A stretch of DNA of 63,618 bases, the filler included, from Dugesia japonica (lineage: Eukaryota), in the NCBI GenBank assembly GCA_001938525.1. It is 6 parts of 6 records of this genome, joined end to end, with 100 filler letters (N's around TTAATTAATTAA, not from the genome) between each part and the next. Parts side by side here need not be neighbours in the genome. Positions count along the whole stretch, not along the records: positions 1 to 14,903 come from MQRL01620591.1; 5 more parts are not named here. One strand, given 5' to 3'. Below, one piece after another: positions 2,062 through 48,656 of the stretch. How positions within the stretch are numbered: the first letter of the stretch is position 1; every line of letters begins with the position of its first letter. Below the pieces are notes generated by a model that saw only the letters and a list, made by a program, of their open reading frames with translations, was not told the origin of the DNA and ran no database searches. The position numbers were made by a program, and so were the translations under genes.

Positions 2062-2552
2062 CTTGTATTCCTGTTCTATCAGTGAAATTTGATAAACTTA
2101 AATGGCTGTTATTTGAGGCTAGATATTGAGAAAATCGCTATAAATCATTTATTTAATGCATGTTAATAAACTAATTTAACTTCATTTCCATAATTCATTA
2201 AATGATGAATTGTTATCAAAGATTTGAAAACAATGACCCAATTTGACTGCTGTGTTCTTTCAATTAATAAATTTGCAAGTTCTGGTATTGAAACATTAGG
2301 CTCATTGGTACATTGAACTAAATCTAAAAAATTTAATACACATATATATATATATGATATATATGATAAAATTATTATTTTAATACATTCTAAATGTTTC
2401 TTCTTTGGTGCTGCCATTTCTTCAGTTGTGGCTTTACAAACAATTTTGGCCAAACCAGATCCAGTAACACTATATTTAGCAGCATTTACTCTATCCATAA
2501 AACTTTGACCAGTTCCATTTCCATAAAGCTGTTTAACAGTTTTCCCAGCCAT
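2062..2552 (-). CDS. PICALM: PICALM/AP180 clathrin assembly protein, N-terminal ANTH domain; exons 2552-2387, 2323-2181, 2137-2062 (rest of gene not found in window)
   Basis: Splicing GT-AG introns of 63 nt and 43 nt gives ...[76 protein letters not shown]..., the ANTH signature with its KKKH PIP2-binding motif. PICALM versus SNAP91 orthology is not resolvable. Confidence 0.93.
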
Positions 2553-3109
2553 AAATTTCGAAATATAAACAAATTTAAATATTTAAACAAACTTAAAATT
2601 TATTAATAATCATTTAATTTGGATTAACAAATAAAATTCAGTTTATTTGTTTTTTATTTTTTCAATGAAATCTAACAGTAATCTAATTTAATGAACTAAG
2701 ATTGATAGAATATTAAAAATAAGTAAATATAAGTAAAAGTTGGTTAGAAACATGAAGTTTACTTCAAAATTAATTCAGTAATAAATATTCATTTTATTTA
2801 AATTAATTAAATTAATTAATAAGAAACTCAATTCTAGTTTTTTTATAAATATTAAATATTATAAATATAAAATATAAATAAATATACCTGCTCATTTTTT
2901 CAAATAATAATTACTTCTGTGAAGTAGTTTTTAAAAGCAATTTTAAATTTTTTGTCTCGATTATAATGTTTTTTAATTTTTTTAAAAGACAAATTTATAT
3001 GCTGTGTTTTTGTGTTGTCTTGAATAAATCTTGGAATGAAAAGTGTTAATTTTTTCAATGCAAAGATGAATGTTACAGATTCATCTAACAACTTCAATTT
3101 TGTAAAACG

Positions 3110-6769: not shown

Positions 6770-8374
6770 TTTAATTTAGTATTGAGAACGATTATCCATA
6801 CCAACCCATAAGTTACCCTACCATCCTATGATTGGTTTTCTCATCAACATTGATAACTTCTTCTTGGAAGTACAGGCCCCTACCAATTAAGTTTACATTC
6901 GTTATGCTAGAGCGATATTAGCTCTGTAATTGATCAACGCTACCCTTGAAAATTAAGTACAACATTTTATGGAAACCGTTTATTGAGACAACATAAAATA
7001 ATAGAAGTAGTTTCAGGGTATAACATAACATAGTTTACATTAGCATGAATATCAATAGTTTATCATATCGATTGATTCTTCTTCTGTCACGCCTTGATTC
7101 AATTTTACATTCTTGTTGTGAGTATTCGGCATATTTTTTATTTAGAATAACATCATTAGTAGATACCAAATCTACAAAGAGCATCATCATTAATAAATGT
7201 TCTCTTTTAATCGCGCTCCAGTGAGCATTAATGCCTGTGCTTCACTATGCACGTTTCTCATCATTTGGGTTTAGGTTCATAATTGTTTCATTCTTTGAGA
7301 ACCATGCCAGAAGTTTGAGGATATTCATTTGATCTCATAAACATATTTATCTCTCCTTCTGAGTTAAATTATTCCAAATTTGAGTATATACCTATTATGT
7401 AAAAAACTCGAGCGCGAAAATTCAAAATTTTCAATTTTTCGATACAAAACCCAATTTATTTCATAACGGATAAACTTTAGCGATTTTAAGTTAATGTTTA
7501 CGGAATCAGCGGTAAATTCTCTATTTAATAGACATAGTTATTTTATCAAAAGATGAGAAAAAGATTTTCGAAAATTTTTATTTGTGAACAATGATTTCCA
7601 TCTAATTTCGCATCGATTGTGTAAAAATCTCGACAAAAAAGTTTTTCAAAAATTTCAAAATTTGGGAGGTCACCCGGATTCACAGAAAAATTGGACTCGA
7701 AAATTTCAACAAAGATGAACAAATTTCCCCAATTTACCACAAAAATTTAAAATATTGTTAAAAACTTGAAAATTTAAACAAATTCGACTTTTTCCATGAA
7801 TTTCTATGAATCTTCAACCCAAACTCAAGGAAAAATTAAATTGAATCGCTCAAAGATTACCCAAACTGACCAATCCAAAGGAAAAAGTTTACTTAAATAA
7901 CCGAAAATGAACAAAGGTCTACCTCACCAAGGAAACCTTTGACCAAATCACACAAAAATTACCAAAATTCTCCATACCGGAGGAAACAATTTACCTACAT
8001 CTCACAAAATGAGCAAAATTCGACCTCACCAAGAAAATTATCAATCAAATTCCCCTGGACCAACCAAAAATCGAACTTACCGAGGAAATTCCAGAATAAA
8101 ACTACTTAAAACCATACAAAAATCAACGTCATTTGACCTCACCGAATAAATTACCAAACAAAAAGCCTGAAATATTTTCCCAACTAAATATACAGTAAAA
8201 ATTCTGGATTACTTAATCCGATTACGTCAAATTCTCGACGATGAAATTAATCTGATGACATAATTTGTGCAAAAAATTTCCCCAACTAAATACACATGCA
8301 ATACATTAGGATTAAGTTTCATTACATCATCTAATCCTGGGGGAGGAGAGCCAGTGCGCTATTATCTACCTACT
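6770..8374 (-). mobile_element. Polinton/Maverick terminal fragment (terminus at 8374) with subterminal repeats and small decayed ORFs
   Basis: The minus strand starts AGTAGGTAGATAATAGCGCACTGG followed by a C-rich tract, matching the other termini. Degenerate GACCTCACC(A/G)AG repeats lie at ~7860-8150. The inner boundary is approximate. Confidence 0.65.
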
Positions 8375-12143: not shown

Positions 12144-12179
12144 AGTAGGCAGATAGTAGTGCACTGTATCACCCACCCC

Positions 12180-12592
12180 TCAAGGTAAAATTTTTTCAAG
12201 GTCACTGATACAGTATAATTGATTCTCATTGGTCAGTGATCTAGTATACTCAATTCTGATTGGCGGAAAATTTGAAGGTCATATTTTCAAGGTCCAACTG
12301 ATACAGTATACTCTATTCTGATTGATCGAAATATTTTCAAGGTCAAATTGATATAGTATCCTGCGATCTGATTGGTCGAAGTGTTTCCAGGTCAAAGTGA
12401 GATAGTATCTTGTGCTCTGATTAGTGGAAGTGTTTTAAGATCAAAATGATATAGTACCTTACGATCTNATTGGTCGAAGCGTTTCAAGGTCAAAGCGATA
12501 TAGTATCCTATGATCTGATTAGATGAAGTGGTTCAAGGTCAAAGTGATAAAGTATCGTGCGATCTGATTAGTCGAAATGTTTCAAGGTCATC
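12180..12592 (+). repeat. Tandem ~49-bp subterminal repeat (about 8 units)
   Basis: Unit approximately TTTCAAGGTCAAAGTGATATAGTATCCTGCGATCTGATTGGTCGAAGTG. TCAAGGTCA-like cores at ~12196, 12287, 12337, 12387, 12436, 12484, 12533 and 12582. Confidence 0.9.
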
Positions 12593-13493
12593 TGATAAAC
12601 TTTATATTTAAATTCCTCAAGCATACTGAATATTTAAATTTTCCGCGTATAATTAATATTAATATTTTTCTTTTGTTTTAATTTATCATTTTTTTAAAAA
12701 TTTTTATTTTTGATTTAACGGTCAGATAGGAAAAGTAAAACTCATAGGTATGACTCATTGTTATGAATTATCGTTATGACTCATGGTTTTTTAAAATTTT
12801 TTTTGTTAGGGACATGAATTTAACCATAGGATAGAGAATTAAAAAGTAACATAGGAATGTCTTACTAACTTGTATCGTTAAATCATTTCTTCCTATTAAA
12901 ATCGCATTCAGAAAATTAATTCTTTTGATTACGTAATCCATTACATAACCAATTTTCAAGAATTTTGTACAGTTATTTGTTTATATTGTCTATATTTCTT
13001 ATTGGAAAGTTACAAATTTGATATCAGTAGACGCGCAATAGAAAGCCGCGCAATGTATTGCACTTAAATGTAGAAACATGATATCGCGCCGAACATTACA
13101 TTATTGAACGCACGATTACATGACAAACAAAAATGATTCTAGTGACTTAATCATAAAAGCTATTAAACAAAGACAATTTTAAAGAAATAACTTTATCTAA
13201 ATTCATTGTTGATAAAATAAAAAAGGACGATTTTGTTTTTATTGTCCATTGTTGCAACTTCATTTTCTTTGTTTAACTTGCACTTTTATTGCGCCCCTGA
13301 ATTACTAATGCTCATTGTTTACTTGTATTTGAGTTGCATTGTCTTTGATTAACCTGTATTCATGTTGCACAAGTATGACTCAGTTTTTTTCTTGACTTGT
13401 ACCTGTATTGCATTTTTCTTTGTTTAAGTTTCCTTATCGAACTTATAATTTTGAGCTCTTTAGAGGACTTATATACTCTTAATCAATATTTGA

Positions 13494-13509
13494 GGTCCTA
13501 AAGAGGACC
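13494..13509 (-). promoter_or_regulatory. Histone-mRNA-type 3' stem-loop downstream of Polinton pPolB
   Basis: Minus strand GGTCCT-CTTT-AGGACC (perfect 6-bp stem, 4-nt loop) followed by TCAAA, 130 nt after the pPolB stop. Confidence 0.7.
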
Positions 13510-13638
13510 GGTACACGTTCACATATATTTATTTTTCTTCTTTTTCCTAAATATAAAAATTTTAAATATTATCTAAAATAAAATCATTTCGTACTTTAAG
13601 GTAGATTGGATTGGATTGATATTGATTGAGGAAAAGTA

Positions 13639-14830
13639 TTACAATAAATAATGCCCGTATGGTAAGCTCATATTTTTCTCTGTCCATACTCTCTNNNNNN
13701 NNNNNNNNNNNNNNNNNNNNNNNNNNNNNNNNNNNNNNNNNNNNNNNNNNNNNNNNNNNNNNNNNNNNNNNNNNNNNNNNNNNNNNNNNNNNNNNNNNNN
13801 NNNNNNNNNNNNNNNNNNNNNNNNNNNNNNNNNNNNNNNNNNNNNNGCTTTCATTGATTCTTTCTCGCTAAGTAGGCTATAACACTTTGGTCTAAAAAAT
13901 ATCCATTCTTGATATTTCTTTACTCTCATCCTTGAACTTTCCAATTACTGAATTAAAATTATTTCTGTAAAGGGGATGGTTTGTGCTGTAATTGGATGTG
14001 TCCAATCGCTAGTCTTTCACCATTAATCCGGTTAGTTTTTCCAATTTTATGTTCTTAATCTCCAGGAAAAAACTATCCGTGTTACCGGCTACAATATTTT
14101 TCTCACAAATTTCTTCTTTTCTGTACTTTTCCAACTCAATGTACTGTAATCGGTACATTCTTAACTTACTTAAGTCTCACAATTGCGTTTCCTAGTCCGT
14201 TCAATGTAGCTCGGTCGCTCAAAACAAACAATGTCTTTATTCATTAAAACAGCAATTAGATCATCATCAATTTTAGTTGTTTTTCTGAAACCAGCTTTTG
14301 ATGTAAATTTTGATGTAATTGAGCTGAATTACACAATCCTTAATTTATTCTTTTCTTTAAATTTTCAACTGTTTTACCATACAAACTATTATTTAAAAGC
14401 TTACAATAATTCTTCTCCAACTCTGTTTTACACCCTGATCTTAATTCAGATATATCGTTTGAAAAATAGATGCTTGGCTAAACTTTACTCCTCTGTGTAC
14501 TTTTGTTATTTGTACACCAAATTTCAAATAAATTTGCAGCAATCTCCAATATATGACATAATTTTCTTTCGGAAAATGAGTCAGCATTAATTTGATCACC
14601 TTACTATCTGGAGCACTTTAATGTTCTGATGCAACAGCTAAATCATTCAGTTCATTTTGGATTTCTGCTGATATAACCATATCTACTTCTAATGTGTATC
14701 CATATGGTAACGATTCGAGATTTCCTATTCTGTATTCTTCCAATACTGAATCCAATCAAATATATACCCACTCGAAATCGGCATAGGGCAATCTCTGACT
14801 TAATGCCCATCCATATAGATTATTGATGTT
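13639..14830 (-). pseudogene. Polinton protein-primed family B DNA polymerase (pPolB), decayed
   Basis: INNLYGWALSQRLPY (~14785-14830), LRMYRLQY..IVAGNTDSFF (~14065-14165), RPKCYS and C-terminal SLPYGHY. Homologous to 30455-32140. Confidence 0.9.
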
Positions 14831-14947
14831 TCTGTGTTTTCGTTGCACATCTTCAATGAAGAAAGACGCACTTCGAACCCATTTAAAGTTTGAGAATAAG
14901 TTGNNNNNNNNNNNNNNNNNNNNNNNNNNNNNNNNNNNNNNNNNNNN

Positions 14948-15699: not shown

Positions 15700-16743
15700 A
15701 TTAATTAGCAAAAAGCTGGTATCCGAATCACATGCATTGTTTTTAAAAAGAAATTCATACTCGAATTGCTTATTGTTGGGGAAAACCAACCTTAAAATAC
15801 ACATACACACACACCTATAACATAGAACAAACACTAGCACGCAGAATTATAACTCAAATCAAAACCATCAAATTATTCCAAACTAACTCATCAAACGATC
15901 CCAACCAAAACAACCAAATCAATGATAGACATTATCTGATCCACGTGACATTATCTGATCATTAGACTTTATAATTTATTGATCCTTTAAAAAATACCTG
16001 AATGTATCTTATCATTTCTTTTTATTAATTTTATTTAACGAAACTGTAAAAGTATGGTTTTAGCTATCAAATTGGTGAATTAATCGCTTTATTTTATTTT
16101 ATTATGTTGTTTTATTTTTATTTTATAAATGAATTTAATTTCAGAAATCTAAATTTTCTATTTATTTTGTAAAATGAATTTAGAAATCTGTTTGTCTTGT
16201 TTAATAATTCGAACGATTGAAAACACGAATTTCCTAAATAAATTCAATCAAATTTGTTTATTTATTTAATAGATTGTAAAAAACGAATTAGAAAATTTTT
16301 ATTTACTTATTTAATTTAAAATTTTAATTTTTGAAAATTCTTATTTATTTTGTAAAAGGTGTCTATTTATTTTTGCAAAAAAATGTAAAGTAAATGTAAA
16401 CATGTGAAAATAATAAGCGACGATTTAATAAAAATAGAGTCGAACCTCATAATTTTCACCATTTAAAAGATGTTCCTGAAGAAGACTATTGTTGAAAATT
16501 TGAACCTTTTTACAAATAAATTTTATTTTGNNNNAAGCCTTTTCTTATTTTAATGAAATTTAAAAGCTGTACAACAGTTTAAATCTTTTGTGATTTACAA
16601 CTGATCAAAACTTATTAACGTGGATCATTGTAATAAAAAAATAAACGCTTATTTTAAAAGTAAATTTTCGAATTCATTTTATAAGGATCACTATATAGTA
16701 TATTTATAAATATTATTGTATATATAATAGACATATTAAGTCA
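15700..16743. mobile_element. Polinton-derived fragment
   Basis: 16500-16560 is nearly identical to 30255-30313 inside the Polinton at 29521. The AT-rich repeats at 16100-16350 resemble 29790-29940. Boundaries are uncertain. Confidence 0.5.
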
Positions 16744-27602: not shown

Positions 27603-28496
27603 TTCCTCTTTCTAATTAATTATATTTCTCCTCAAATATAATTCGTTTAATTTATCTAATATTAATTCTTTTATCTTCTTGAGCCGTGTTTTTATATATT
27701 TTCTTATAACTTTCTCTGGAGCTTTATTTCATATTTATTTTTTTCCTTAAGTAATTAATTTATTAATAATTATTTCTTTTTCAGTTGTATTTATTAATAT
27801 TTATTTTCTTTTATTTCGATGATTATCATTTCTGCACTCCTTTTGTTTGAACATTTGATTTTTATAGTCTTTATTTTGTTCTATGTAATTATTTATTTTT
27901 ATTTCTTTCATATTTTACATTGATACCTCGAAATTCGTTTAATTTATTGTAATTTGTAATTATTCATTTTCATTAAGTAGAAAATTTAATAATTCATATT
28001 TTTATTAGCATTTTTCCACTAACATTAAATTGAAGTACTTTAGTTGCCGACACTTTTCTGTTATCATTGTCAAACTGTATATTAACTGAGTTTTCTTTAA
28101 GTCAAATAAACTTAAAATTCTAATTTTGAATTGAAATGTGTTAAATATACATTAAAATTATGATTTTAATTAGATATTAGAAAAATTAAATATTCGTGTG
28201 CACATCTGTTGTAAATAAAGGTAGTTCTCGTTAGTTTATTTAACAACCAATTAGAATACCTATTTATATGAAAATTTTCATAATCATTAGTGTGCAAATA
28301 TTATAATTGAAATCATTCAACTCTTTATAATTAAAATATAAATATAAATGTTAACCCACAGTACTTAAAGTAATAATATTTAAAAATGATTTTCATTAAA
28401 AATATTATAAACTCAATTAATAAGTAACATAATATTATCACTTGAACACAAACAAGTAAAAGATTAATAAATAATAATAAATACAATCATTTTTTT

Positions 28497-28512
28497 GGTC
28501 CTGAAAGGGACC
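28497..28512 (-). promoter_or_regulatory. Histone-mRNA-type stem-loop (one mismatch)
   Basis: GGTCCC-TTTC-AGGACC followed by AAAAA. It shares upstream AAGTGAGAACGCAT with the copy at 28810. Confidence 0.6.
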
Positions 28513-28809
28513 GAAATGCGTTCTCACTTCATTTACATATTGATTCATTTAATTCCTTCTTTTAATGAAATATTGATTCATCATTAAAAATAAATCTATT
28601 GATTCATTGTTTCTTTGTTTCTAAATAATATTTTCTAAAGTATATTTATAAAAAAATTAAAACATTTAACAATCAAAAAAATTACTATTTTGCTTCAACA
28701 CTTTTTAAACACTAAATTATCGTTATTCTTCTGTTTTCTTTTCTAAATATTAATTTATTAAAATAATTATATCAGAATTAACTGATAATTAGATTCAATC
28801 ACAATTTGT

Positions 28810-28825
28810 GGTCCGAAAGAGGACC
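28810..28825 (-). promoter_or_regulatory. Histone-mRNA-type stem-loop ~41 nt after helicase stop codon
   Basis: GGTCCT-CTTT-CGGACC (one mismatch at the top pair) followed by the histone-type flank ACAAA. Confidence 0.65.
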
Positions 28826-28866
28826 ATTATGCGTTCTCACTTGTTTATTTAGAATATTTGTTTACT

Positions 28867-29466
28867 TTAGAATAAATTTTGAGAAAAATATTCATCCATT
28901 TGATTTGTGAATTTAGATATTATTGGTTTACGATTGGATTCATTACTGTCGTTGATGAACAGAGGTTCGTTGCCGAATATATAAAAATGACACCGTTTTC
29001 TTATTGCTACATTTCGTCCTTTATTCCAATTTATATTGATTAGATCATCCATTGAGTTCCAACAAATGATAATCCTGTCGTTCGCAGGTATTATACCTGT
29101 GCCATATTTCAAATGTATCGAAGTATTATAGCAGGTTATAGCAATTTTATATTTCTTCGGCAGTCCATGTGTGTAAGGGTAGATCATCAATTACACATCT
29201 ATCATACCAAAATCTCAAAGTCCTGGTGAATTGTGACGTGTATTGGTTGCTTAAAAGGACTTAACGCGAAATTGGTTTTCCCAATACCTAAAACAAAAAC
29301 ATAAATTCTTGAAATTTAAAAATTAAATAAATGGCTTTCGTACGATCGTTATCACAATTGAAGAATTCTAATTTCTAATTGGTGTTGGATTTTGGTATTC
29401 CGGGTATTTCATCATCGTTAAAATTTGAACATGTTGGCTGTTCATTAACATTTTCAATGTTGTTTC
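28867..29466 (-). pseudogene. CRESS/geminivirus Rep-like SF3 helicase domain with intron acceptors, frameshifted
   Basis: Composite reading RTKAIYL..[acceptor TTTTAG at 29288]..(G)IGKTNFALSPFKQPIHV..YDRCVIDDLP..SIHLKYGTGIIPANDRIIICWN..AIRKR..EPLF gives Walker A, Walker B, motif B'/C and an Arg-finger region. A second acceptor TTTCAG lies at ~29467. Confidence 0.75.
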
Positions 29467-30210
29467 TGAAATAATATAAAAATTAATAACTTATTAAACA
29501 AAAAACAATAATTTATTACGAGTAGATGGATAGTAGCGTACGGGGCCACCTCGCCCGACCCTTGCAGAGAAAGAAAATTTTAACTGGCCTCGATTTTTAT
29601 TGTTTACATTGTTCGCACAAACGTTTTTAAGATTTTTGATTGACCTAAATTTTAAGGTCTAGTGGCCCCGATTTTAAACATTTTGATTGGTGGAAATTTT
29701 TAAGTTCAGGATCATTTGGCCTCAATTTTTGATGAGTCATAGATGTGTTCAGATGAAATTATCGTTGGGTTTTAAGATCAAGGTAATTTGTTTTTTGTTT
29801 AAATTAAATGAAATTAACGATTTTTATTTAAATTAAGTGAGATTAATGATTTTTTTGTTTAGATTAATTGATTTTTCTGATTGGTTTAAATTTACTGATT
29901 TTTTAGATTTTAATTTAAATTAAGTGATTTAATGATTTTTTTGGATTTGTCATAGAAAGCCGATGGTAAAATTTATTTTTTTTCAAATTTCAAATTTTGT
30001 AGTGAATTTCCGCCTGGGCAATATTAACATCAATATTAGAAACATTACATGTTTCTCAGACAATATTAATAATAATATATAAAAGACAAATGAAAAGGCT
30101 AATCCAAACTTAAAATTTATTGTTGATAAAACGTAGATAATTACAGTTATCATGTACAGTTGTTTAAATCTGGATCTTCATTTTGTAAATTAGATCTTAA
30201 TATTACAAGA

Positions 30211-30312
30211 TTTCATTAAAATAAGAAAAAGCTTTCATCAAAATAAAATTTATTTGAACCTTTTTACAAATAAATTTTATTTTGATCGAAGCATTTTCTT
30301 ATTTTAATGAAA
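30211..30312. repeat. 46-bp inverted repeat with 10-nt spacer
   Basis: 30211-30256 versus the revcomp of 30267-30312 shows 3 mismatches. Confidence 0.85.
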
Positions 30313-30454
30313 TGTCAAATGCGATCAATGGTTAAATCCATAAATTATTCTCACAATTATTGTAATAATGAAATTAATAGTACAAATTAATTAGTTTAAA
30401 TAACAAAGAAATTACCTGTGAATGTGCTTCTTTTCATCCGAGTCTTATTTATTA

Positions 30455-32140
30455 CGAGATAGAATAATGCACGTATGGTACACTTATATTTTTTCAGGCC
30501 ATGCTCTTTTGTCGTCATTATTGGTTAATGCGACTTTTGGTGCTAAGAAACTGTACAGCTGGTGGTTTTTCGTTTCTATTCTTAATTGTTTCACTGAGAC
30601 CGGTTTACTGTAATTGTAACAATCAAGGTATGACTGATGATTAATGTCAGTACCTTTTAATGTTATGATCTTAGCCTTCATCGATTCCTTCTCGCTAAGT
30701 AAGCTATAACCCTTCGGTCTCACGAAAATTCATTCTTTATATTTCCTTCCTTTATTTTTGTCCTTAAAGTTTCCTACCACCGAATTGAGTTTCATGTGAT
30801 AAAAAGTGCGGTCTAATGAGTAATTTAAAGTATTTAATAGTCGATCTTTTACTACCAGTGTCAATAACTTTTCCAANCTAATGTTTCTAACTTCTAAGAA
30901 NAAGCTATCGGTATCCCCAGCTACTATTTCTATCTCGCAATTTTCTTGTTTCCTATATTTTTCTAGATCAATGTATTGAAGTCGATACATTCGTAATTTG
31001 ATTAAATCAAGAACTGTCTGTCCTATGTAACTCGGTCTTTTGAGACACACAATGTCTTTATTTAATTGTACCNCTATTAAATCTTTATCGATCTTAATGG
31101 TTCTCTTAAACCCTGGTTTTGAGGTATAGGTCACTAAATTCTTTGCACTAATTACATATTCTCAAGTTTATTCGTTTCTTCAAATTTTCAACTGATTAGC
31201 CATACAAGCTGTTGTTCATCAGCTTATAGTAACTTTTGTCTAATTTATTCACACTTTCAGCTCTTAATTTAGTGTTTTCGTCGATGCATTGCTTGAAAAT
31301 ATGATCTTGTAAAAACCTAACTGTTCTGTGAACATTTGTAACTTTCACAACTAATTGCAAGTACATTTTTAGTAATCTCCAGTGTACTACGTAATTGAAC
31401 TTTGAATAATGAGTCAACATTAATTTCTAGACCTTTCTTCCTGGAGCATATTGATGTTCGGCTGCAATGGTTAAGTCACTGATATAATTGTAAAGTTCAT
31501 TGAGAATCTCCATGTCAACTTCTAGTGTGTATCCATATTGTAACGACTCGAGATCTGCATATTTACATTCTTCTAAAACTTCTTCTAATCCATAATATAC
31601 CCATTCATAATCTTTGTATGGTAACTTCTGGCTCAAATCCCAACCACACAGATTATTTATATCGATGTATAACAACTCTGTGTTTTTATCTGAAATAACA
31701 TGGTGTTTGTTAGCCCATCTCTAATCTCACCTTCAAAAAAGGTGTAAATGTCTTTATCAATTAAAAACTCGATGGGTTCGTTTTAAGTGATCAAAGCAAA
31801 TGCCCAGCACATACCTGGAATGCCAAAATAATTTAAGAGTTCCAAGCGGTTGTGAGCTAATGATTTGACTCAGAATTGCTGAAAAAAGTCAGCTAGGAGA
31901 AAGACATCCAACTTCATGTACAACAGCATTTAGTCCTGTAAGTTTTTGCATTTCAAGATTTTCCACATATCCACCGCTTTTTTATGTTCTTGTTCACTAA
32001 TTCCATCCCATTTTGGTGGCATTTTCTTGGTATTAACCAGCACTTGTAAACTGGTAGCAAGATTGCAAGGGGAAATTCCCCTTTGTCCTTATAATTCTGC
32101 TTTTGATAAATTGATACATTCAAACAAAGAACAACCAATA
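30455..32140 (-). pseudogene. Polinton pPolB, decayed
   Basis: KGEFP, YMKLDVFLLADFF, LYIDINNL.GW.LSQKLP, KLMNNSLYG, IVAGDTDS, GNFKD, RPKGYS, KVAL..NDDKR. Confidence 0.95.
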
Positions 32141-32413
32141 AAAATAATGCTCACCAACTGCATATCAACTATTTCATACAATGATTAAGTTCAACAAATC
32201 AAAAAGTTGTAAATGCTTTGTTTAACTGGCAGTGGCTTTGCATTTGTATTGCACTTATAATATTTAAACAAATAATTACCAATCAAAACATGTGAATAAT
32301 CAAAAGTAACATATTTTCAACCAATAAAATCAATGCATACAAACTATACAATAAATACTTATCGACACTAAGTTTAAAAGCAAAAATATTTAATAAATTT
32401 TGATTATTTAAAT

Positions 32414-33471: not shown

Positions 33472-33632
33472 TATTTAAAATTAAAAACTGATTAAAATGA
33501 AATATTTAGTGTGTTATATACAATTCTCTGTTTAACACAAATCGACCAATGAAAAAGAAGTAATAATCAAAAAAGGAAATGCCTTGTTATACTTGCATTC
33601 ATATTACATGACTGTGCATTCTTGTTGTGAAA

Positions 33633-33900
33633 TTAAACAATTAAGTTATAGAAATCAGAAATTATATTATCTACATATCTTTGGTAGTGTAAATTCTTTA
33701 TATGAAGTATTACAATTTTTTTTGATGAAAATACGTTTACACATACAGGTTCATACTTCGTAAGTTGTAATGCGGGAAACAATTCCGGTTCAAACCAGCA
33801 TTTTGTTGTTTTTGCTAATTTATACAAATTGATAACTTGTCCCAAATTGTATTACAATTGTTAATGATTGCAAACGAATATCTTTGATATCATACAGTAA
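33633..33900 (-). pseudogene. Polinton-encoded TBP-like protein, C-terminal repeat (N-half deleted)
   Basis: YDIKDIRLQSLTIV/LGQVINLYKL..WFEPELFPAL..VCVNVFSSKKIVIL matches TBP repeat 2 (YEPELFPGL..LIFVSGKVVLTG). Confidence 0.85.
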
Positions 33901-34099: not shown

Positions 34100-34640
34100 A
34101 ATGGCAAAATTTTAAAAGTTTATAGTTGATCAAATAAAAAGAATTCCGAAGATAAAAAAAGGAAAACGAACAAAAAGCGTATTGTAAGAAAAAATGTGGA
34201 AAGAGGAAACAATCTAAACTGTTGAACATTTTTAAGAAACTATCAAAACTGTATGGAAAGAAAATGTCCAACGTAAACGGAAAATGGAAATCATTTTAAA
34301 CAAATACGGGTAAGTTATATTATTAAAATATAAGAAGTACAACGAAGTATTCCAATTTTTACATCATTAATTAAATCTTCAAAATCGGTGAAAATGCAAA
34401 TTTTGAAATCATTTCCAACGTTTGTTATGGATGATTTAATTGAAATTATTATAAGTATTGTTCGCGAAAATGTAAATGTGAGTATTTCTAGAAAGGAAGT
34501 ATTGAAAAAACATAAAAGAACGCGATTAACACTTGTAAATACCAAAAATAGGAAATTGGTGAGACAAATAATACGTCATAATAAAAGAAGTAGCTTTATA
34601 GCAGCATTACTACCAATTAAAAAATTGATGAGTAGTAAAA
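34100..34640 (+). pseudogene. Basic small Polinton ORF(s) between ATPase and integrase
   Basis: The Lys/Arg-rich ORF (LIEIIISIVRENV..LKKHK..SFIAALLP) resembles small basic Polinton core-like ORFs. Confidence 0.45.
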
Positions 34641-35612
34641 TTGATGAAAGAAACACAAAAAACAAAATCAAAAACCAAAACGTGGTTATCGGGTCAACTA
34701 GCGTACAGTTTTAACAAACCAATGTTGAAAAGATTTCCAACAAGATTGTATAATAGGTTTGGTATTGATGATTTATGGCAGATGAATCTAATGGAGATGA
34801 TTCCATATTCAAAAATAAATAAACGATATAAGTTTATTTTGACATGTATTGATGTATTCAGTCGATTTGCAAGAGCTATTCCGGTCAAATCGAAATCCGC
34901 TAATGAAATGGAACTTGCAATTAAGTCAATATTCAAAGATGGACATCCAGATAATTTGCAAACAGATTTGGCTAAGAAACTTTACAACTCTAAAGTCAAA
35001 AATCTTTTATCACATCTAAACATAAACCATTATATCGTATTCTCTCAGTATAAAGCGGCAAATGTAGAGAGATTTAATCGCACATTAAGATATGCTTTGA
35101 AAAAATACTTTGTGTATACTGGTAATAAAACTTGGATAAATGTGTTGTCAAAATTGATTCATAGTTATAATCATTCAAGTCATAAAAATGTAAATAGAGC
35201 AAGACCGGTTGATATAGGTTCAAACAATGAATTAAAATTATGGTTATCGCGTGATCAAAGTAAAGCAAATTAGAAACCAAACTATAAAGTCGGTATCATG
35301 TTAGAATCTCAAAAATAAGTGCATCTCCATTCATTAAAAACTTTGATAGTAACTGGAGCGATGAAGTGTGTCAAATAACAACAATCTATTCTAAACAAAA
35401 TCCAGTCATATATTTAATTAAAGATTATGAGAATAATATTATAAAAGGAAAACTTTATGAGCAAGAATTACAAGTCATTCCATCTTCTACTATATATAGA
35501 ATCGAAAAATTAATAAAATTGAAAGAAATCGGTTAAAATAAAGAATATTATGTAAAATGACATGGATATCAAAAACCTACTTGGATATTATCATCACAGT
35601 TAGTTAATAATG
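34641..35612 (+). pseudogene. Polinton retroviral-like integrase (c-INT) with C-terminal chromodomain-like region
   Basis: DDLWQMNL, LTCIDVFSR, LQTD, KAANVERFNRTL; downstream WSDEV.., GKLYEQELQ and YYVK*HGY...W. Frameshifted after 35273. Confidence 0.92.
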
Positions 35613-36634: not shown

Positions 36635-39600
36635 GATAATATCATAATAGATTTTCCAGAATTCGTTGTCGGAAAACTTTACGATCATTCAAATTCGATG
36701 AGGTTTCCTTACTTGACATGATCGGAATTTCCGGAGTGCTCAATTGTCTTCTTAAATTAACTTTTTTCGTCGTATTGACAGGAGCTTACGGAATAACATT
36801 AATACTCGTTTCCAAAGGTTTATTATGATTTTCATAAAACCTCGTATCAATATTTTTCAAATCAGAAATCTCTTTATTTAAATTTGTTATTTCCGACAAA
36901 AGAGTAATTATTTTCATTTTGGTTTTCACAAATTCGTTTGAAATTGTATCCGTAGTTTCTTTGTAATAGTCCAAATCGATTTTACTTGGACTATTACTTA
37001 GACTATTCTAATCGCTCAGTGTTACGCTTTATAACAAATTAATTGTTGCCTCTAATTTTCTGGTTCTTTAAAACCATGTTTTTGTGATTCTATTCATATT
37101 TATATCTTAATTTATATAATGTATTGTGTATGCAAACAATTTGTTGTTGATTGGCGTTATCTGTCTTGAAGTATTATTTGTCATTATTGCGATTTTGAGA
37201 AATTCTTTTGTTTTTTTCTTCGGTTTCTGAAAGTGTATGCAAAATTTGTTTGTTATAGTCCAATTTACCTTTATTTTTCACTAATTCCTTTGAAATTGTA
37301 TCTGACGTTTCTTTGTTATGGTCCAAATTGAATTTACTTAGACTATTCTAATCAATCAGTATTAGGCTTTATAATCATCTACCCTGACTTAACTAAGCAC
37401 AATAATTTCATGTTCACAGAATTCTCGCAAAAGATACTTTAGTTTCTGAATCAGATAATATCGAAATAGAATTTCCAGAATTCGTTATCGGAAAACGTTA
37501 CGATCTCTAAAATTCAATGAAGTTTCTGGACTTGACTTTATCAAAATTTCTAGAGTGCTCAATTCTCTTCTTAAATTAACGTTTTTCGTTGTATTTACTG
37601 AAGCTTACGGAATAACATTAATACTCGTTTCCAAAGTTTTATTATGATTTTCTTGAAACCTCGTATTAATATTTTTTAAATCAGAAATCTTTTTATTTTA
37701 AATTTTTTAGATTAATATTTAGATTTATTTTGATTTTCTTAAAACCTCGTATCATAATTTTTCAAGTCATAATTTTCTATATTTAAATTTGTTATTTCCT
37801 TCAAAAGTGTAATCACTTACATTTCGGTTTTTACTAATTCCCTTGAAAATATATCTGAAGTTTTTTTTTAATAGTCCAAATTGAATTTACTTTTAACTAT
37901 TCTAATCAATCAGTATTGGGCTTTATAATCATCAACCTTGACTTAACTAAGCACAATAATTTCATGTTCACAAAATTCTTGCATAAGAATCTTCGGTTTC
38001 TGAATTGGATAATATCGAAATGGTTATTTAAAATCTTTTTATTTAAATTTGTTATTTCCTACAAAAGTGTAATATCTTTCATTTCAGTCGTCACTAATTC
38101 TTTTGAAATTATATCTGAAGTTTCTTTGTAATATTCCAAATCTAATTTACTTTGACTATTCTAATCACTCAGTACTAGGCTTTAAATTCATAAATTATGA
38201 CTTGACTAAGCACAATAAGTTCATGTTCACAGAATTCTTGCATAAGAATCTTCAGTTTCTGAGTCAAATAACATCAAATTGGATTTTCCATAATTCGTTT
38301 TCAAAAGCTTTACTATCATTTTAGGTCGATGAACTTTCCGGACTTGACTTCATTAGAATTTCGAGAATGCTCCATTCTATTCTTAAATTAACATTTTTCT
38401 TCGTATTGACAGGAGTTTATGGAATAACATTAGTACTCGTTTACAAAGGTTTATTATGATTGTCTTGAAACCTCGTATCAATATGTTTCAAGTCGGAAAT
38501 TTCTTTATTTATATTTGTTATTTCCAACAAAAGTTTAATCACTCACAATTCAGTTTTACTTATTCCCTCGAAAATATATCTAACGTTTCTTTGTTATATT
38601 TCAAATCGAATTTACGTGGAATATTCTAATCACTCAGTATTATGCTTTTTAATCATATACCCTGACTTAACTAAGCGCAATAATTTCATGTTCACAGAAT
38701 TCTCGCATAAATACTGGCAGGTTATTACGTCTGTCTCTTTTGAAATTCTGTGTAAAGTCTTTTCTTGAGGGTTTTCAATACAAATTAGTTGTTGGCTCTA
38801 ATATCTTCGTTCTTTTAAACCTTGTTTCTGTTGTTCTTTTGATGGATCTTTCTTTGTGCGGTTCTGATATTTGATCTACAGATTTCTCAATTATATTTAT
38901 TCTGGCTGATTTATAAGTTGCGTTGATACTTTTATTTGCACCGGTTTTACCACAATCCACACAGCTGACTTCGTTGACATTGATGACTTCGAAAATAGGA
39001 TTGCTGCGAAATTTTACTTCTTAGCAATGATAATTAATTTAATTATTTTAATTATTTGGTTCAATACTGTTTGGTAACAGAAAATAAAAAAATTAATTAA
39101 TCATTCAATAATATAAAATGATAATAATTTATATTCTAATTAATAAAATTTGATTTGTTTTAATTCATCCTTGTTCATTAAAAATAATAATATTTATTGA
39201 ATAAATAAGACTTTTAATTATGTTTATCGATAATAATAATAATAATTTCACAATTTTAAATAATTAATTCAAACATAGTAATAATAATGTTGGATTGCTT
39301 ACGATGCATCTTTGATAATCATATTTGATGCATCATTCAATAGCATAAAATGATAATAATTTATATTATAATTAATATAATTTGATTTGAATGCAAAAAA
39401 TTGTTTTTAATGGGCGCGATCTGTCTTGAAGTTTTATTTTTCATTATTGCCATTTTGAGCAATTATTTTGTTTTTTTCTTCGGTTTCTGAATCAGATAAT
39501 ATCGAAACGGATTTTCCAGAATTCGTTGTCGGACTTGACTCCATCAAAATTTCCAGAGTGCTGTAATTCTCTTCCTAAATTAATGTTTTTCGTCGTATTG

Positions 39601-40305
39601 ACAGGAGCTTAAGGAATAACATTAATACTTGTTTCCAAAGGTTAATTATGATTTTCTTGAAACCTCGTATCAATATTTTTTAAGTAGGAAATCTTTTTAT
39701 TTAAATTTGTTATTTCTTCTAAAAGTGTAATCACATTCAATTCGGTTTTCACTAATTCCCTTGAAATTGCCTTGGCCACCATTACTTTAGGCCATAATAT
39801 AAAAAGAACAATCTGGTGGCATAAATGTTCTAAAGCATTATATTATTTAAAGTTATTTAGTGATATTAGTTTTACTCTTCATTATATCAAGCGTTTGGAC
39901 TAATCCTCATAACCATCAAACCTGAACTATCCAGCAAATCAATGATAATTATACATAAAAACGGATTGATTTGCCCTTTCCTAAAGACATGGTGCCAGCG
40001 TAACTCATTCAACAATTAGGCCTTCCTTCCTAGTGCAGGAATCGTTGCAACTAGCTTTTCTATCAACAAAAGGTTTAATAAAATAATCTGATCAATAAGC
40101 CATTATTTTTCCCATTTCTTTGGTTTCTGAATCATATAATATCGAAGTGGATTTTCTAGAATGCGTTGTCGGAAAACTTTATCATTTTAATTCGATGAAG
40201 TTTCCGGACTTGACTTCATCAGAATTTCTGGAGTGCTCAATTCTCTTCTTAAATTAACGTTTTTCGGCCCATTGACAGAAGCTTATTGGATAACATTAAT
40301 ACTTC
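36635..40305 (-). repeat. Degenerate ~400-bp tandem repeat of decayed coiled-coil-coding sequence (about 6-7 partial units)
   Basis: Recurrent blocks GGAATAACATTAATACTCGTTTCCAAAGG (~36790, 37609, 38421, 39613) and TGACTTAACTAAGCACAATAATTTCATGTTCACAG (~37385, 37939, 38662). The minus frame reads EITNLNKEISDLKNIDTRF. Confidence 0.8.
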
Positions 40306-42260: not shown

Positions 42261-42554
42261 CAATAAAGTGGTCTCCATGTTAGAGTTATTATTTCTTAAG
42301 TTAAGAGAATTCATTGAAAACCAAGTTCTGATAAAAAAATGTATTTAAAAATTTACACAATAAAATACAAAAATAACAATAATAAAGCAACACATTTATT
42401 TAAGGATTTTGTCATCTTCTGGTAAATTGATTGATCATACGTAAAATGCAACATTCGAAATTTATCTAAACTATTTTTTTATTTCAAATCATTAAATTAT
42501 TATTTTTGAAACTAATTTAAATTCTATTTATTATATTTAAATTTGTAAATCTCA

Positions 42555-44030
42555 CAGTCACTATGATGTCAGTTATTTCTAACGTAAGTTTCTCATAGCT
42601 AGTCTGGCCGTTAACCAGCACTTAATTGAATTTCTTCACGTTGAAATAATTTTGTGGAAATATTTTTCTTTTGAAATCTTTTGTTGTTATTTGAGTAATT
42701 GGCTTCGTAAGATGGGTTTTAATCGACATTTACCTCCGCTTGAGTTGATTGATGGATTTGATTTGCATCACCTGAAGCTATGGCAATGTATTTAGCCATG
42801 ATGATTGCATCTTGGACTAGAGGGATCTATTATTGCTAATAGTCACTATGAGGTCAGTTATTTCTAACATTAGTTTCTCATAGCGACTCCCACCGTTCAC
42901 CAGCACTTAATTGAATTTAGTCACGTGGACATTCATGCGCGAACAATTAAGTTCAATCATGTTGTTTAGATTCAGTTTACTTGAGGCATTATTTTCATTT
43001 TTTTCTTGTTCTTATCTATGTTGTTCACTTGAGAATAACATCATACTAGTCTCAAAAGGATTTTTGGCCAATAGTTGAAAGCCTAACAAAACTCAACATG
43101 AAAGATATGAATAAACGTGACATAGTTGAGATATCTTCACAATTTTCTTTTGCATAATCGTCCAAGATGATCATTAAAATCATGTCAAAACTTTTTAATG
43201 ACCTTGCTTGTACTTTTTGAATTTTCATTGATTTCTGAATATTCGTCTTTTTCAAAAAAATCTGATTTATTTTTATTAACAGAAATAGAAATATTCGGAA
43301 ACACTTTTGTAGAAATTCTTTTCTTTTTAAGTTCTTTTGGTTTTTGAGTTGTTAGCTTCTTAAGGTGGGTTTTAATTGACATTTACATACGACTGAGTTT
43401 ATTGATTGATTTGATTTGCATCACCTGAAGCAATATCAATGGATTAATCCATGATGATTGCATCTTGGACTAGAGGGATCTATAATTGCTAATAGTCATT
43501 ATAATGTCAGTTATTTCTACCATTAGTTTCTCATAGCTACTCTGGCCGTAAACCAGCGCTTAATTGAATTTCTTCACTGTGAAATCTTTTTGTGGAAATC
43601 ATTTTCTTTTGAAATCTTTTGTTGTTATTTGAGTCGTTGGCTTTTTGAGGATGGCTTAATCAATATTTACCACCGTTTGAGTTGATTACTGGATTTAATT
43701 TGCATCACCTAAAGCTATGACAATAGATTTAGCCATAATGATTGCATTTTGAACACGAGTTTTTACGTTCTAGGAAAGAAGGGATTTATTATTGCTTATT
43801 ATTACTATGAGGTCAGTTATTTCTTATATTAGTTCCTCTTAGCTACTCTCACCGTTAACCAGCATTTAATTGAATTTATTCACGTTGACAATCATGCCAG
43901 AGCAGTTTGGTTCAATCATGTTATTTAGAATCGGTTTACTTGAGGCATAATTGTCATCTTTTTTCTTATTCTTATCTTTTTTGATCACTTGCGAATAAGT
44001 GCTTGACTTTTTATTGATTTATGAATATTC
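42555..44030. repeat. Degenerate tandem repeat, ~290-bp core (4 cores plus extensions)
   Basis: (AGTC)ACTATGA(T/G)GTCAGTTATTTCT at ~42557, 42841, 43494 and 43804; GATTTGCATCACCTGAAGC at ~42760, 43413 and 43696. Confidence 0.8.
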
Positions 44031-47333: not shown

Positions 47334-48010
47334 TTAAAATGTAGAAATAGCAAATCCGAGGGCCCAGCTTAGATATGTTCCATTTATGCTTTTTGAAATA
47401 TGTATTTTATCACCCATATAAAACTTGTATCCTTTGAAAAATAGAGCCGCAATATATGACATATCTACGCACAAAAAATGTACAAATGGGCTTCCCTTAG
47501 CAAGACGATCCATTAAAGTACATTTCGTATATGCTTCACTATTTATTTTATACATGCTGTATTTAATTGTATCATTTTTAGATTTATTAGCCATAGCTGA
47601 GGATATTAAATAATAGAATGCAGAAATACCAACAAAATCCATATCCTCGTGGTACATTCTAATTGGTTGTATATTTGTAAGATAAGAAATGCCTTTTTCG
47701 TGGCAATAGCTAGATCTATTTCGGAGAGAAGTATAAAATCTACAGTAAATTGGGATTTCGCAATTACGATATTTAAATCTAGCTAGAACGTCATTATGCA
47801 TACATTTAGATCCTAGGGATTCTTCTCTACAACAGGAATCTACGCAATCCGTTGCATTGAAATATTTTGCACGTATTTCATTAATACCCANNNNATTATA
47901 ACCAGCAACATAAATATAATATTCCTTCCCGAATAATGTCATAGTTTTATCGGGTGGTGAATCATTTGTGGTTGCAAAATTATATTGTGTTTCCCAAATG
48001 ATGTTGCTTT
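47334..48010 (-). pseudogene. GDA1/CD39 family NTPDase (apyrase), C-terminal half, intronless, 5'-truncated
   Basis: YYIYVAGY..GINEIR, FVGISAFYY, FLCVDMSYIAALF..GY and C-terminal ACR5 SWALG. There is no C-terminal TM segment. Confidence 0.75.
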
Positions 48011-48157
48011 GGGATATAATTGTTGAATTTCTCTAGGCGAATCTGTCAATTGATTCTTTCTTAGACTGATGAGTTTGTTTAGCGTAAGGTTTTTTTTTAA
48101 TAAGGAAATTATATTTTCTTAATTAATTAGTAAAATATATAAACTCAACAATTGCTT

Positions 48158-48440
48158 TGGCAACATCAATTGGGAAACAGAATATAATTTTGCAACCACA
48201 AATGATTCACCACCGGATAAAACTGTTAGTATAACATTATTCGGGAAAGAATATTATATTTATGTTGCTGGTTATAATTACATGGGTATTAATGAAATAC
48301 GTGCAAAATATTTCAATGCAANGGATTGCGTAGATTCCTGTTGTAGAGAAGAATCCCTAGGATCTAAATGTATGCATAATGACGTTCTAGATAGATTTAA
48401 ATATCGTAATTGCGAAATCCCAATTTACGGTAGATTTTAT
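48158..48440 (+). pseudogene. Inverted partial duplicate of the NTPDase fragment
   Basis: Near-identical revcomp of ~47735-48007 (GINEIRAKYFNA.DCVDSCCREESLG..). Confidence 0.85.
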
Positions 48441-48656
48441 AAAATTTATATTTTGATTCTTAATCCTGATTCTCTTATTTTGTAAAATATTTCNNNNNNN
48501 NNNNNNNNNNNNNNNNNNNNNNNNNNNNNNNNNNNNNNNNNNNNNNNNNNNNNNNNNNNNNNATCATGTATCAACTTTTAAAACGTTGCCTGTGCCGTTG
48601 CTAACACGAATGGAATCCAATTCAACCTAAAGAATGAAGTTTGAACCAAATCAACA

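Follow-up and report, generated by a model that had tools for sequence, protein, structure and literature searches.

A candidate histone-type mRNA 3′-end signal behind a decayed Polinton DNA polymerase gene of the planarian Dugesia japonica

Introduction

What is a histone-type stem-loop doing behind the DNA polymerase gene of a mobile element? The question is raised by a stretch of 63,618 nucleotides from the planarian Dugesia japonica (GenBank assembly GCA_001938525.1; six parts of six records joined with filler letters, hereafter the window), in which the decayed protein-primed DNA polymerase gene (pPolB) of a Polinton is followed on its coding strand by a hairpin like that at the end of replication-dependent histone mRNAs. 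Such messages have been called the only cellular mRNAs known to lack a poly(A) tail (PMC4604434). An original prediction, made from the sequence of the window, proposed that the element mimics histone 3′-end processing and so couples its polymerase mRNA to host S phase.

The reading that we favour, with a probability of roughly 0.57, is that in active elements of a Polinton family a close match to the planarian histone 3′-end signal behind the polymerase gene ended the mRNA through the host protein that binds histone stem-loops (SLBP) together with a U7-type cut, which would have tied it to S phase in dividing stem cells. Polintons and histone 3′ signals are both of known kinds, and their combination is absent from the literature searched: no report of a Polinton or DNA virus with a histone mRNA end signal was found there, subscription journals and some supplements lying outside the coverage. 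By term searches of the accessible text, PMC8097293 mentions neither a stem-loop nor a polyadenylation signal, and PMC10748475 neither a stem-loop nor a histone. The supplements of a bioRxiv survey (10.64898/2026.10.14.759114) may bear on flatworm stem-loops.

Results

A histone-type hairpin on the coding strand of a Polinton polymerase relic

The first pPolB relic of the window (copy 1; 13639–14903, minus strand) represents the C-terminal part of the polymerase; its three-frame translation is interrupted by many stops and frameshifts, and a scaffold gap at 14904 cuts its upstream side. The stop codon TAA lies at 13641–13639, and 129 nt behind it (130 had been claimed) stands the hairpin GGTCCT-CTTT-AGGACC, designated SL1 (13494–13509), which reads on the minus strand and thus on the coding strand of the relic. 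On its 3′ side, TCAAA (13493–13489) is followed by TAT, by TGATT at +9 (13485–13481) and by AAGAG (13480–13476), so that the sequence confirms the arrangement originally described; the TCAAA flank and TGATT span 13481–13493, TGATT being the candidate U7-binding site. On its 5′ side, GAACG occupies −11 to −7 (13516–13520). Folding of the 26-nt SL1 core is predicted to give six base pairs closed by a four-nucleotide loop (−9.1 kcal/mol, z −2.9), and SL1 carries the marks of a histone stem-loop, namely a G-C pair at stem position 2, U at the third loop position and a U-A top pair.

The setting is that of a Polinton. A second decayed pPolB (copy 2; 30452–32200, minus strand, left end approximate, stop at 30454–30452) is 67% identical to copy 1 over 1004 nt, and its in-frame piece gave a weak match to Pfam DNA_pol_B_2 (E 4e-4) together with matches to 4098 library proteins; an rve integrase lies nearby at 34632–35273. 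Beyond the 3′ side of copy 1, motif and repeat scans showed a Polinton terminal region (12144–12590, minus strand) made up of a CTACT end motif at 12144–12159, which gives the AGT-type terminus of Polinton/Maverick elements, and a 49-nt tandem repeat of 6.2 copies. Paired ends and a 6-bp target duplication were not found for the Polinton fragments of the window, copy 1 being truncated by the scaffold gap. The copy that bears SL1 is a dead relic.

Three copies of one module

SL1 turned out to be the core of a module of about 45 nt: the hairpin is preceded by GAACG (−11 to −7) and followed by an AAA flank, with TGATT next at +8 or +9. A consensus scan revealed two further hairpins, both on the minus strand and both overlooked in the earlier reading of the window: SL2 (hairpin 28810–28825, module 28796–28836), with ACAAA and TGATTG at +9, and SL3 (hairpin 28497–28512, module 28484–28523), with TGATTG at +8, 313 nt downstream of SL2. 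Each has one mismatch to the 16-nt consensus. With at most one mismatch allowed, this consensus has 3 sites in the window against a shuffle mean of 0.025, and 3 sites were reached in 0 of 200 dinucleotide shuffles; when TGRTT at +8/+9 was added, a part of the pattern drawn after the sites were seen, the same 3 window sites remained and each of the 200 shuffles gave zero. Outside the module limits the three copies share little, the likeness ending sharply at the edges of the functional signal. No histone coding relic precedes any of them (0 histone Pfam matches in 9 frames).

Ahead of SL2 lies a broken open reading frame (ORF; 28867–29288, minus strand) with a Walker A-like GIGKTN from 29288 and a 107-aa open C-terminal piece, for which an Atlas feature match pointed to DUF5906 at 0.91 (30% of members), a lead rather than an assignment. 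DUF5906 is what we take to be a superfamily-3 (SF3) helicase-like family. Pfam, PDB and word-index protein searches with this ORF gave no match, nor did PHROG give a credible one. Judged by these features, the ORF is likely an SF3-helicase relic. SL2 stands 41 nt behind its stop, inside the 25–60 nt that separate stop and stem-loop in histone mRNAs (bioRxiv 10.64898/2026.10.14.759114).

The module also stands behind the likely SF3-helicase relic, so that its use by two or more replication genes of such elements is possible. Carried further, this gives the wider proposal that planarian Polintons have both replication genes, the one for DNA polymerase and the one for an SF3 helicase, expressed through the SLBP/U7 pathway of the host. 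Their mRNAs would then lack poly(A), would arise and be translated in S-phase neoblasts only, and would disappear afterwards along with histone mRNAs, a virus-like mimicry of the histone mRNA end. We hold this wider proposal tentatively, at somewhat less than even odds.

The module matches planarian histone 3′ ends in register

Histone 3′ features of the planarian Schmidtea were read from published primers, not from full histone gene sequences. When reverse-complemented, the primers for unprocessed histone mRNAs read TAGGGCC ACAAA TGT TGATTG for H4 and TAGGGCC ACAAG CTT TGGT for H3, while the H2A primer gives ACC TCAAT and the H1 primer starts with TGATTG (PMC6312358). Another H3 primer gives AGAATGCGTTAC GGCCCT CT (PMC10954484, Table S1). 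In register with one another, the modules of the window and these primers have in common GAAYG at −11 to −7 (GAACG of SL1 standing where the H3 3′ untranslated region primer has GAATG), a loop that begins with C and ends with T, and TGATTG at +9.

A search of the window with the H4 primer returned SL1 and SL2 as the two best sites (each with 4 mismatches in 21 nt, i.e. 17/21; next best 6), and the 20-nt H3 primer from the 5′ side gave SL2 (15/20), SL1 (14/20) and SL3 (14/20) as three of the four best. The H3 3′, H2A and H1 primers as wholes did not single out SL1–3 in the window. The comparison with planarian histone stem-loops, suggested as a check in the original prediction, thus bears it out for SL1 and its flanks. 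Because the Schmidtea primers show the same features in register, the module is, as far as these motifs tell, a host-type histone 3′ signal and not a generic look-alike. The DNA of the window is AT-rich, which along with these motifs suits a planarian host.

The machinery that would read such a signal is present in the host group. RNA interference against Smed-slbp leads to stem cell loss (PMC4603911), and planarian stem-loop histone mRNAs are non-adenylated and depleted from oligo-dT libraries (PMC10954484); for these reasons we conclude that the SLBP pathway exists in planarians.

Related copies show no common hairpin variant and are transcribed

The element that bears SL1 is multi-copy: 4513 contigs of the DNA run X1 map to 12900–14900 at 80% likeness, most of them less than 95% alike. 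Between 13430 and 13610, 38 variant rows at 37 positions were recorded (at least 15% in any of 4 runs), with none at the 16 hairpin positions and none at 13481–13491. Variant positions thus number 0/16 in the hairpin and 37/165 elsewhere (Fisher p 0.02), a p value that rises to 0.05 once 8 rows that are likely poly(T) artefacts are left out and to 0.13 in the DNA run X1 by itself, so that conservation of the hairpin among family copies is suggestive only. Run X8, labelled as a second organism, has nearly the same variants as X1 and was not counted as cross-species conservation. At 13493 and 13480, 96–99% of the X1 depth is unlike the window and shifted toward the H4 primer.

AAGAG had been put forward as a purine-rich downstream element. 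The motif itself is present at 13480–13476; given that 13478–13480 vary among copies, it is not a conserved part, and the better candidate for the role is TGATT, which shows no common variant and which the H4 and H1 primers carry as TGATTG. The hairpin region is linked to the pPolB end in diverged copies as well: X9 record 11 (13416–13668, 30 other letters) spans both the hairpin region and the pPolB stop, and X1 record 3 reaches into the hairpin.

The oligo-dT run X17 contributed 2042 reads to the 2-kb stretch, and most of their first mates lie on the plus strand. First mates on this strand represent pPolB-sense RNA in most stranded libraries. Only 11 of the reads are at least 99% alike, and the reads therefore derive from other copies; copies of the family are transcribed in the pPolB sense. 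Polintons are reported to be under piRNA repression (PMC10558129).

Weighing the signal against its rivals

A number of observations weigh against the favoured reading, and they are gathered here together with the rival explanations that draw on them. The Rfam Histone3 model (RF00032), a check proposed earlier and run on the window, failed to recognise SL1 at its own threshold, giving it 21.6 bits where the gathering score is 34 (E 0.0064 for a 2-kb stretch, 0.2 over the whole window), and no match in the window reached gathering level. In SL2 and SL3 the single mismatch falls on the top stem pair, so that the top U-A pair is lost. The sub-threshold score speaks for chance resemblance, as does a bare 16-nt hairpin of such form that occurs 20 times in IMG/VR contigs. 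Yet none of these 20 has the flanks of the module in register (by eye) or exceeds 16.5 bits with a model trained on the window, whereas the three window copies have common flanks that match host primers in register. Chance has thereby been largely refuted already, and we give it almost no credence.

None of the 20 IMG/VR hairpins has pPolB nearby (tblastn), and they were set aside as chance background, as were three viral contigs with phage-like ORFs that matched a general stem-loop plus CAAA pattern. Searches of viral contigs with a pPolB piece, with the helicase-like ORF and with the hairpin plus TGATT pattern gave no match.

Beyond the window, an alignment of 16 relatives was used to collect distant pPolB loci (the best 80 of 484 metagenome loci and 31 viral loci), 101 of which were eligible with a trailer of at least 150 nt. 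Within 400 nt of the stop, 0/101 had the hairpin, including the two closest at 55–58% identity, and the window-trained model gave a best E of 0.23 in 100 loci and nothing in the other 11. The module is therefore not general to Polintons. Even in the window, pPolB copy 2 has no intact hairpin behind its stop by consensus scan or model search (E≤5), just as had been stated. In the DNA data the hairpin is covered about twice as deeply as the flank upstream of it. Many mapped records fit only 13481–13525 and have unlike flanks, 17 X17 reads among them. Since the H4 primer fits a loose end at 13489 in register, histone genes and other loci are mixed among the mapped records; they may dilute the variant counts, and seeding may favour intact hairpins.

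These facts suit an explanation in which the module stems from a host histone 3′ end, either as a captured or hitch-hiking fragment or as a tiny dispersed repeat of that origin. It would have entered an ancestor of the Polinton family and been amplified with it, having no role in the polymerase mRNA. On such an account one would point to the many mapped records that have only the module of about 45 nt in common, to SL3 without a gene ahead, to the absence of the module from copy 2 and the 101 distant relatives, to the existence of hairpin-less deletion forms and to a conservation statistic that is merely borderline. It fits less well with a likeness among SL1–3 that stops at the limits of the functional signal, with the lack of any histone coding relic, with the position of two of the three copies, which follow the stop of a replication-type gene in sense orientation at 41 and 129 nt, and with a hairpin free of common variants in copies that are mostly less than 95% alike. 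We regard capture without function as unlikely, while taking it seriously.

The RNA data bear on whether the signal is cut. Sense depth in X17 amounts to 29 across the hairpin, to 27.9 at 13486–13492 and to 17.1 at 13479–13485, and 16 X17 reads extend past 13481, i.e. across the predicted cut site; among the ends listed, no pile-up appears near +5 in this library type, which selects against non-adenylated ends. Since reads cross both the hairpin and the predicted cut site, read-through RNA exists, about 17 of the depth of 29 over the hairpin coming from loci with other upstream flanks. The hairpin might accordingly bind SLBP and be poorly cut. Most of the mRNA would then be polyadenylated downstream, and the hairpin, instead of forming the mRNA end, would be a decoy or would influence how the mRNA is translated, localised or degraded (passage into the piRNA pathway included). 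In favour of this, every RNA read examined at fine scale continues through the hairpin, SL1 lies far from the stop, another imperfect hairpin comes after it, and planarian stem-loop histone RNAs feed SMEDWI-1 piRNAs (PMC10954484). However, TGATT, which would be needed for cleavage and not for SLBP binding, is kept at host spacing in 3/3 copies without a common variant, and oligo-dT libraries select read-through RNA in any case. Poor cleavage therefore seems improbable to us.

Near 13545 the sense depth in oligo-dT RNA drops from about 51 to 13, while the DNA depth is steady there. Depletion of hairpin-bearing RNA from poly(A) libraries would fit this drop, though weakly. The drop may also be due to one well-expressed deletion copy: 18 X17 and 3 X20 reads leave near 13545 for sequence that matches the window from 13379 onward, a hairpin-less form with no GT donor. 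A 48-nt intron (13594–13547) had been proposed to bring the hairpin closer to the stop. The GT...AG stretch exists, and no splicing of it was seen in the RNA examined: X17 reads cover it at a sense depth of 31–51 across most of its length, and no RNA joint was found at 13430–13610 (16 nt flank on one side) or among the 15 of 98 joints listed over 2 kb. A poly(A) site at 13528, suggested by T-rich loose ends of 6 X20 reads, was rejected, these ends looking like poly(T) reads on an A-rich stretch.

Unspliced, the gap of 129 nt exceeds the 25–60 nt of histone mRNAs, even with SL1 on the sense strand. By this spacing SL1 falls beyond the distances that are said to count in the control of stability (bioRxiv 10.64898/2026.10.14.759114), a TATA-like motif follows directly (13475–13469), and the RNA depth dips at 13436–13502 and then rises downstream. 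Such a pattern would suit a module that uses the histone-type cut only to end the transcript compactly and to shield the terminal repeat or a following promoter, without useful S-phase timing. The dip may just reflect divergence among copies, however, and processing by this route needs SLBP; the supply of this protein is coupled to S phase in those animals that have been studied, so that timing would likely follow (PMC10954484). Insulation without timing is in our estimate very improbable. Finally, a published survey reports no planarian U7 small nuclear RNA (snRNA) above threshold in its accessible text (PMC6312358).

With all of this weighed, we still favour a histone 3′-end signal that probably served the polymerase mRNA. 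As for the original prediction of histone-type mimicry, the match to Schmidtea primers, the coding strand and the lack of common variants stand behind it, and its AAGAG element and intron find no support.

Sequence around the modules and elsewhere in the window

Behind SL1, the TATA-like TATATAA overlaps an imperfect hairpin-like stretch (13454–13475 in all, minus strand; the hairpin-like part at 13454–13469, 25 nt behind SL1), and tandem hairpins likewise occur at SL2/SL3. Four positions at 13457–13462 are unlike the window in 76–99% of the mapped X1 depth, the differences of the copies improving the pairing of this imperfect hairpin. The stretch 13150–13475 (minus strand) has an ATG at 13413 after TATATAA, is broken and repeat-rich, contains a TGAGTCA site and shows climbing sense RNA depth; it may be a small gene lying downstream or belong to the terminal repeat. 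TGAGTCA sites are found at 12751, 12777 and 13376. At 13030–13095 (minus strand) lies a cluster of CGCG-containing motifs that are E2F-like by eye, a strict E2F pattern giving no match.

Behind pPolB copy 2, a 5′-flank-like TGAGAAT-N7-GG at 30353 was discarded as a post hoc pattern, being absent from model matches at E≤5 and without significant fold; at most a weak relic, it was not counted. At the place where the module would be expected, 30210–30319 holds an AT-rich inverted repeat with 47-nt arms that recurs at 16498–16565 and is probably a separate small insertion. Polinton-type end motifs ending in CTACT (0–2 mismatches) occur at 8359, 12144, 26041, 26670, 27587, 29521 and 36619; in all, 11 matches were counted against 0.64 expected, which points to nested Polinton pieces and short elements whose ends are of one kind. 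An ORF at 54523–54936 (minus strand) has a weak TBP-domain match (Pfam E 0.0025) and a 67% identical copy at 33630–33833 inside the second Polinton, so that a TBP-like gene carried by the element is possible. Beside a Polinton-type end, 36635–40303 and 42525–43963 contain dispersed direct repeat families of 120–400 nt with coding-like, coiled-coil-looking frames. On one metagenome contig among the distant pPolB loci (L076), 7339–8089, about 1 kb behind pPolB, holds two tRNA matches and a weak HDV-like ribozyme match (drz-agam-2-2, E 0.024).

Elsewhere in the window, an inverted duplication (47334–48485; 212-nt arms, 96%) covers a GDA1/CD39 apyrase-like coding stretch. Host genes are represented by the start of an ANTH/ENTH (PICALM-like) gene at 2163–2582 (minus strand) and by INTS8 exons at 56223–57001 (plus strand); a word-index protein search with the INTS8 piece gave no match.

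Discussion

Our reading of the locus can be put as a sequence of steps. In active elements, pPolB would be transcribed by host Pol II, SLBP would bind the hairpin of the pPolB mRNA, and a U7-type RNA would pair with TGATT(G) as the downstream element. CPSF73 would then cut about 5 nt after the stem, near 13489, and the pPolB mRNA would be supplied in S phase, in the manner of histone mRNAs, in neoblasts, which are the cells that divide in planarians. The spacing of 129 nt may weaken the control of decay. If this scheme is true, it offers a mechanism with which a self-synthesising element would bring its replication into step with the S phase of host stem cells, it adds a client that is neither histone nor host to the SLBP/U7 pathway, and it implies that Polinton activity is under-counted by oligo-dT transcriptomes. 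The common TGATT(G) motif also offers a handle for finding a planarian U7 snRNA.

Among the closest known systems are the histone ends of Schmidtea mediterranea, which resemble the module in GAAYG, in a loop with C first and T last, in an ACAAA or TCAA flank and in TGATTG at +9 (PMC6312358, PMC10954484). They differ in the H3/H4 arms, GGCCCT and AGGGCC against GGTCCT and AGGACC in the window; the H2A primer, for its part, ends the stem in ACC. With the metazoan replication-dependent histone mRNA end in general (RF00032, SLBP, the histone downstream element (HDE) and the U7 small nuclear ribonucleoprotein), the module shares the 6-bp stem, the 4-nt loop, G-C at position 2, U at loop position 3, the U-A top pair (SL1), an AAA-containing flank and a conserved downstream element. 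In contrast to that system, the window has the signal on non-histone mobile-element genes and 129 nt from the pPolB stop, with a C-first loop, TGATT(G) in place of a purine-rich element and a sub-threshold Rfam score, and the signal is known here from sequence.

The 3′ element of Caenorhabditis elegans histone genes is similar in that a CTTT loop lies within an extended conserved region (32–36 nt), the downstream motif is short and not made of purines (AATCC), and U7 snRNA goes unidentified in the paper; the motif is a different one, and it sits on histone genes (PMC1924863). The elements themselves resemble Polinton/Maverick in pPolB, the nearby rve integrase, AGT-type ends and terminal-region repeats, the window copies being fragments (PMC8097293). 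A mobile element with part of a histone 3′ signal is likewise known from human HERV1/LTR12, which is repressed by U7 snRNA via HDE-like motifs. There, however, the HDE-like motif occurs alone and acts in transcriptional repression, whereas the window has a whole stem-loop with its downstream element behind a coding region (PMC11417402).

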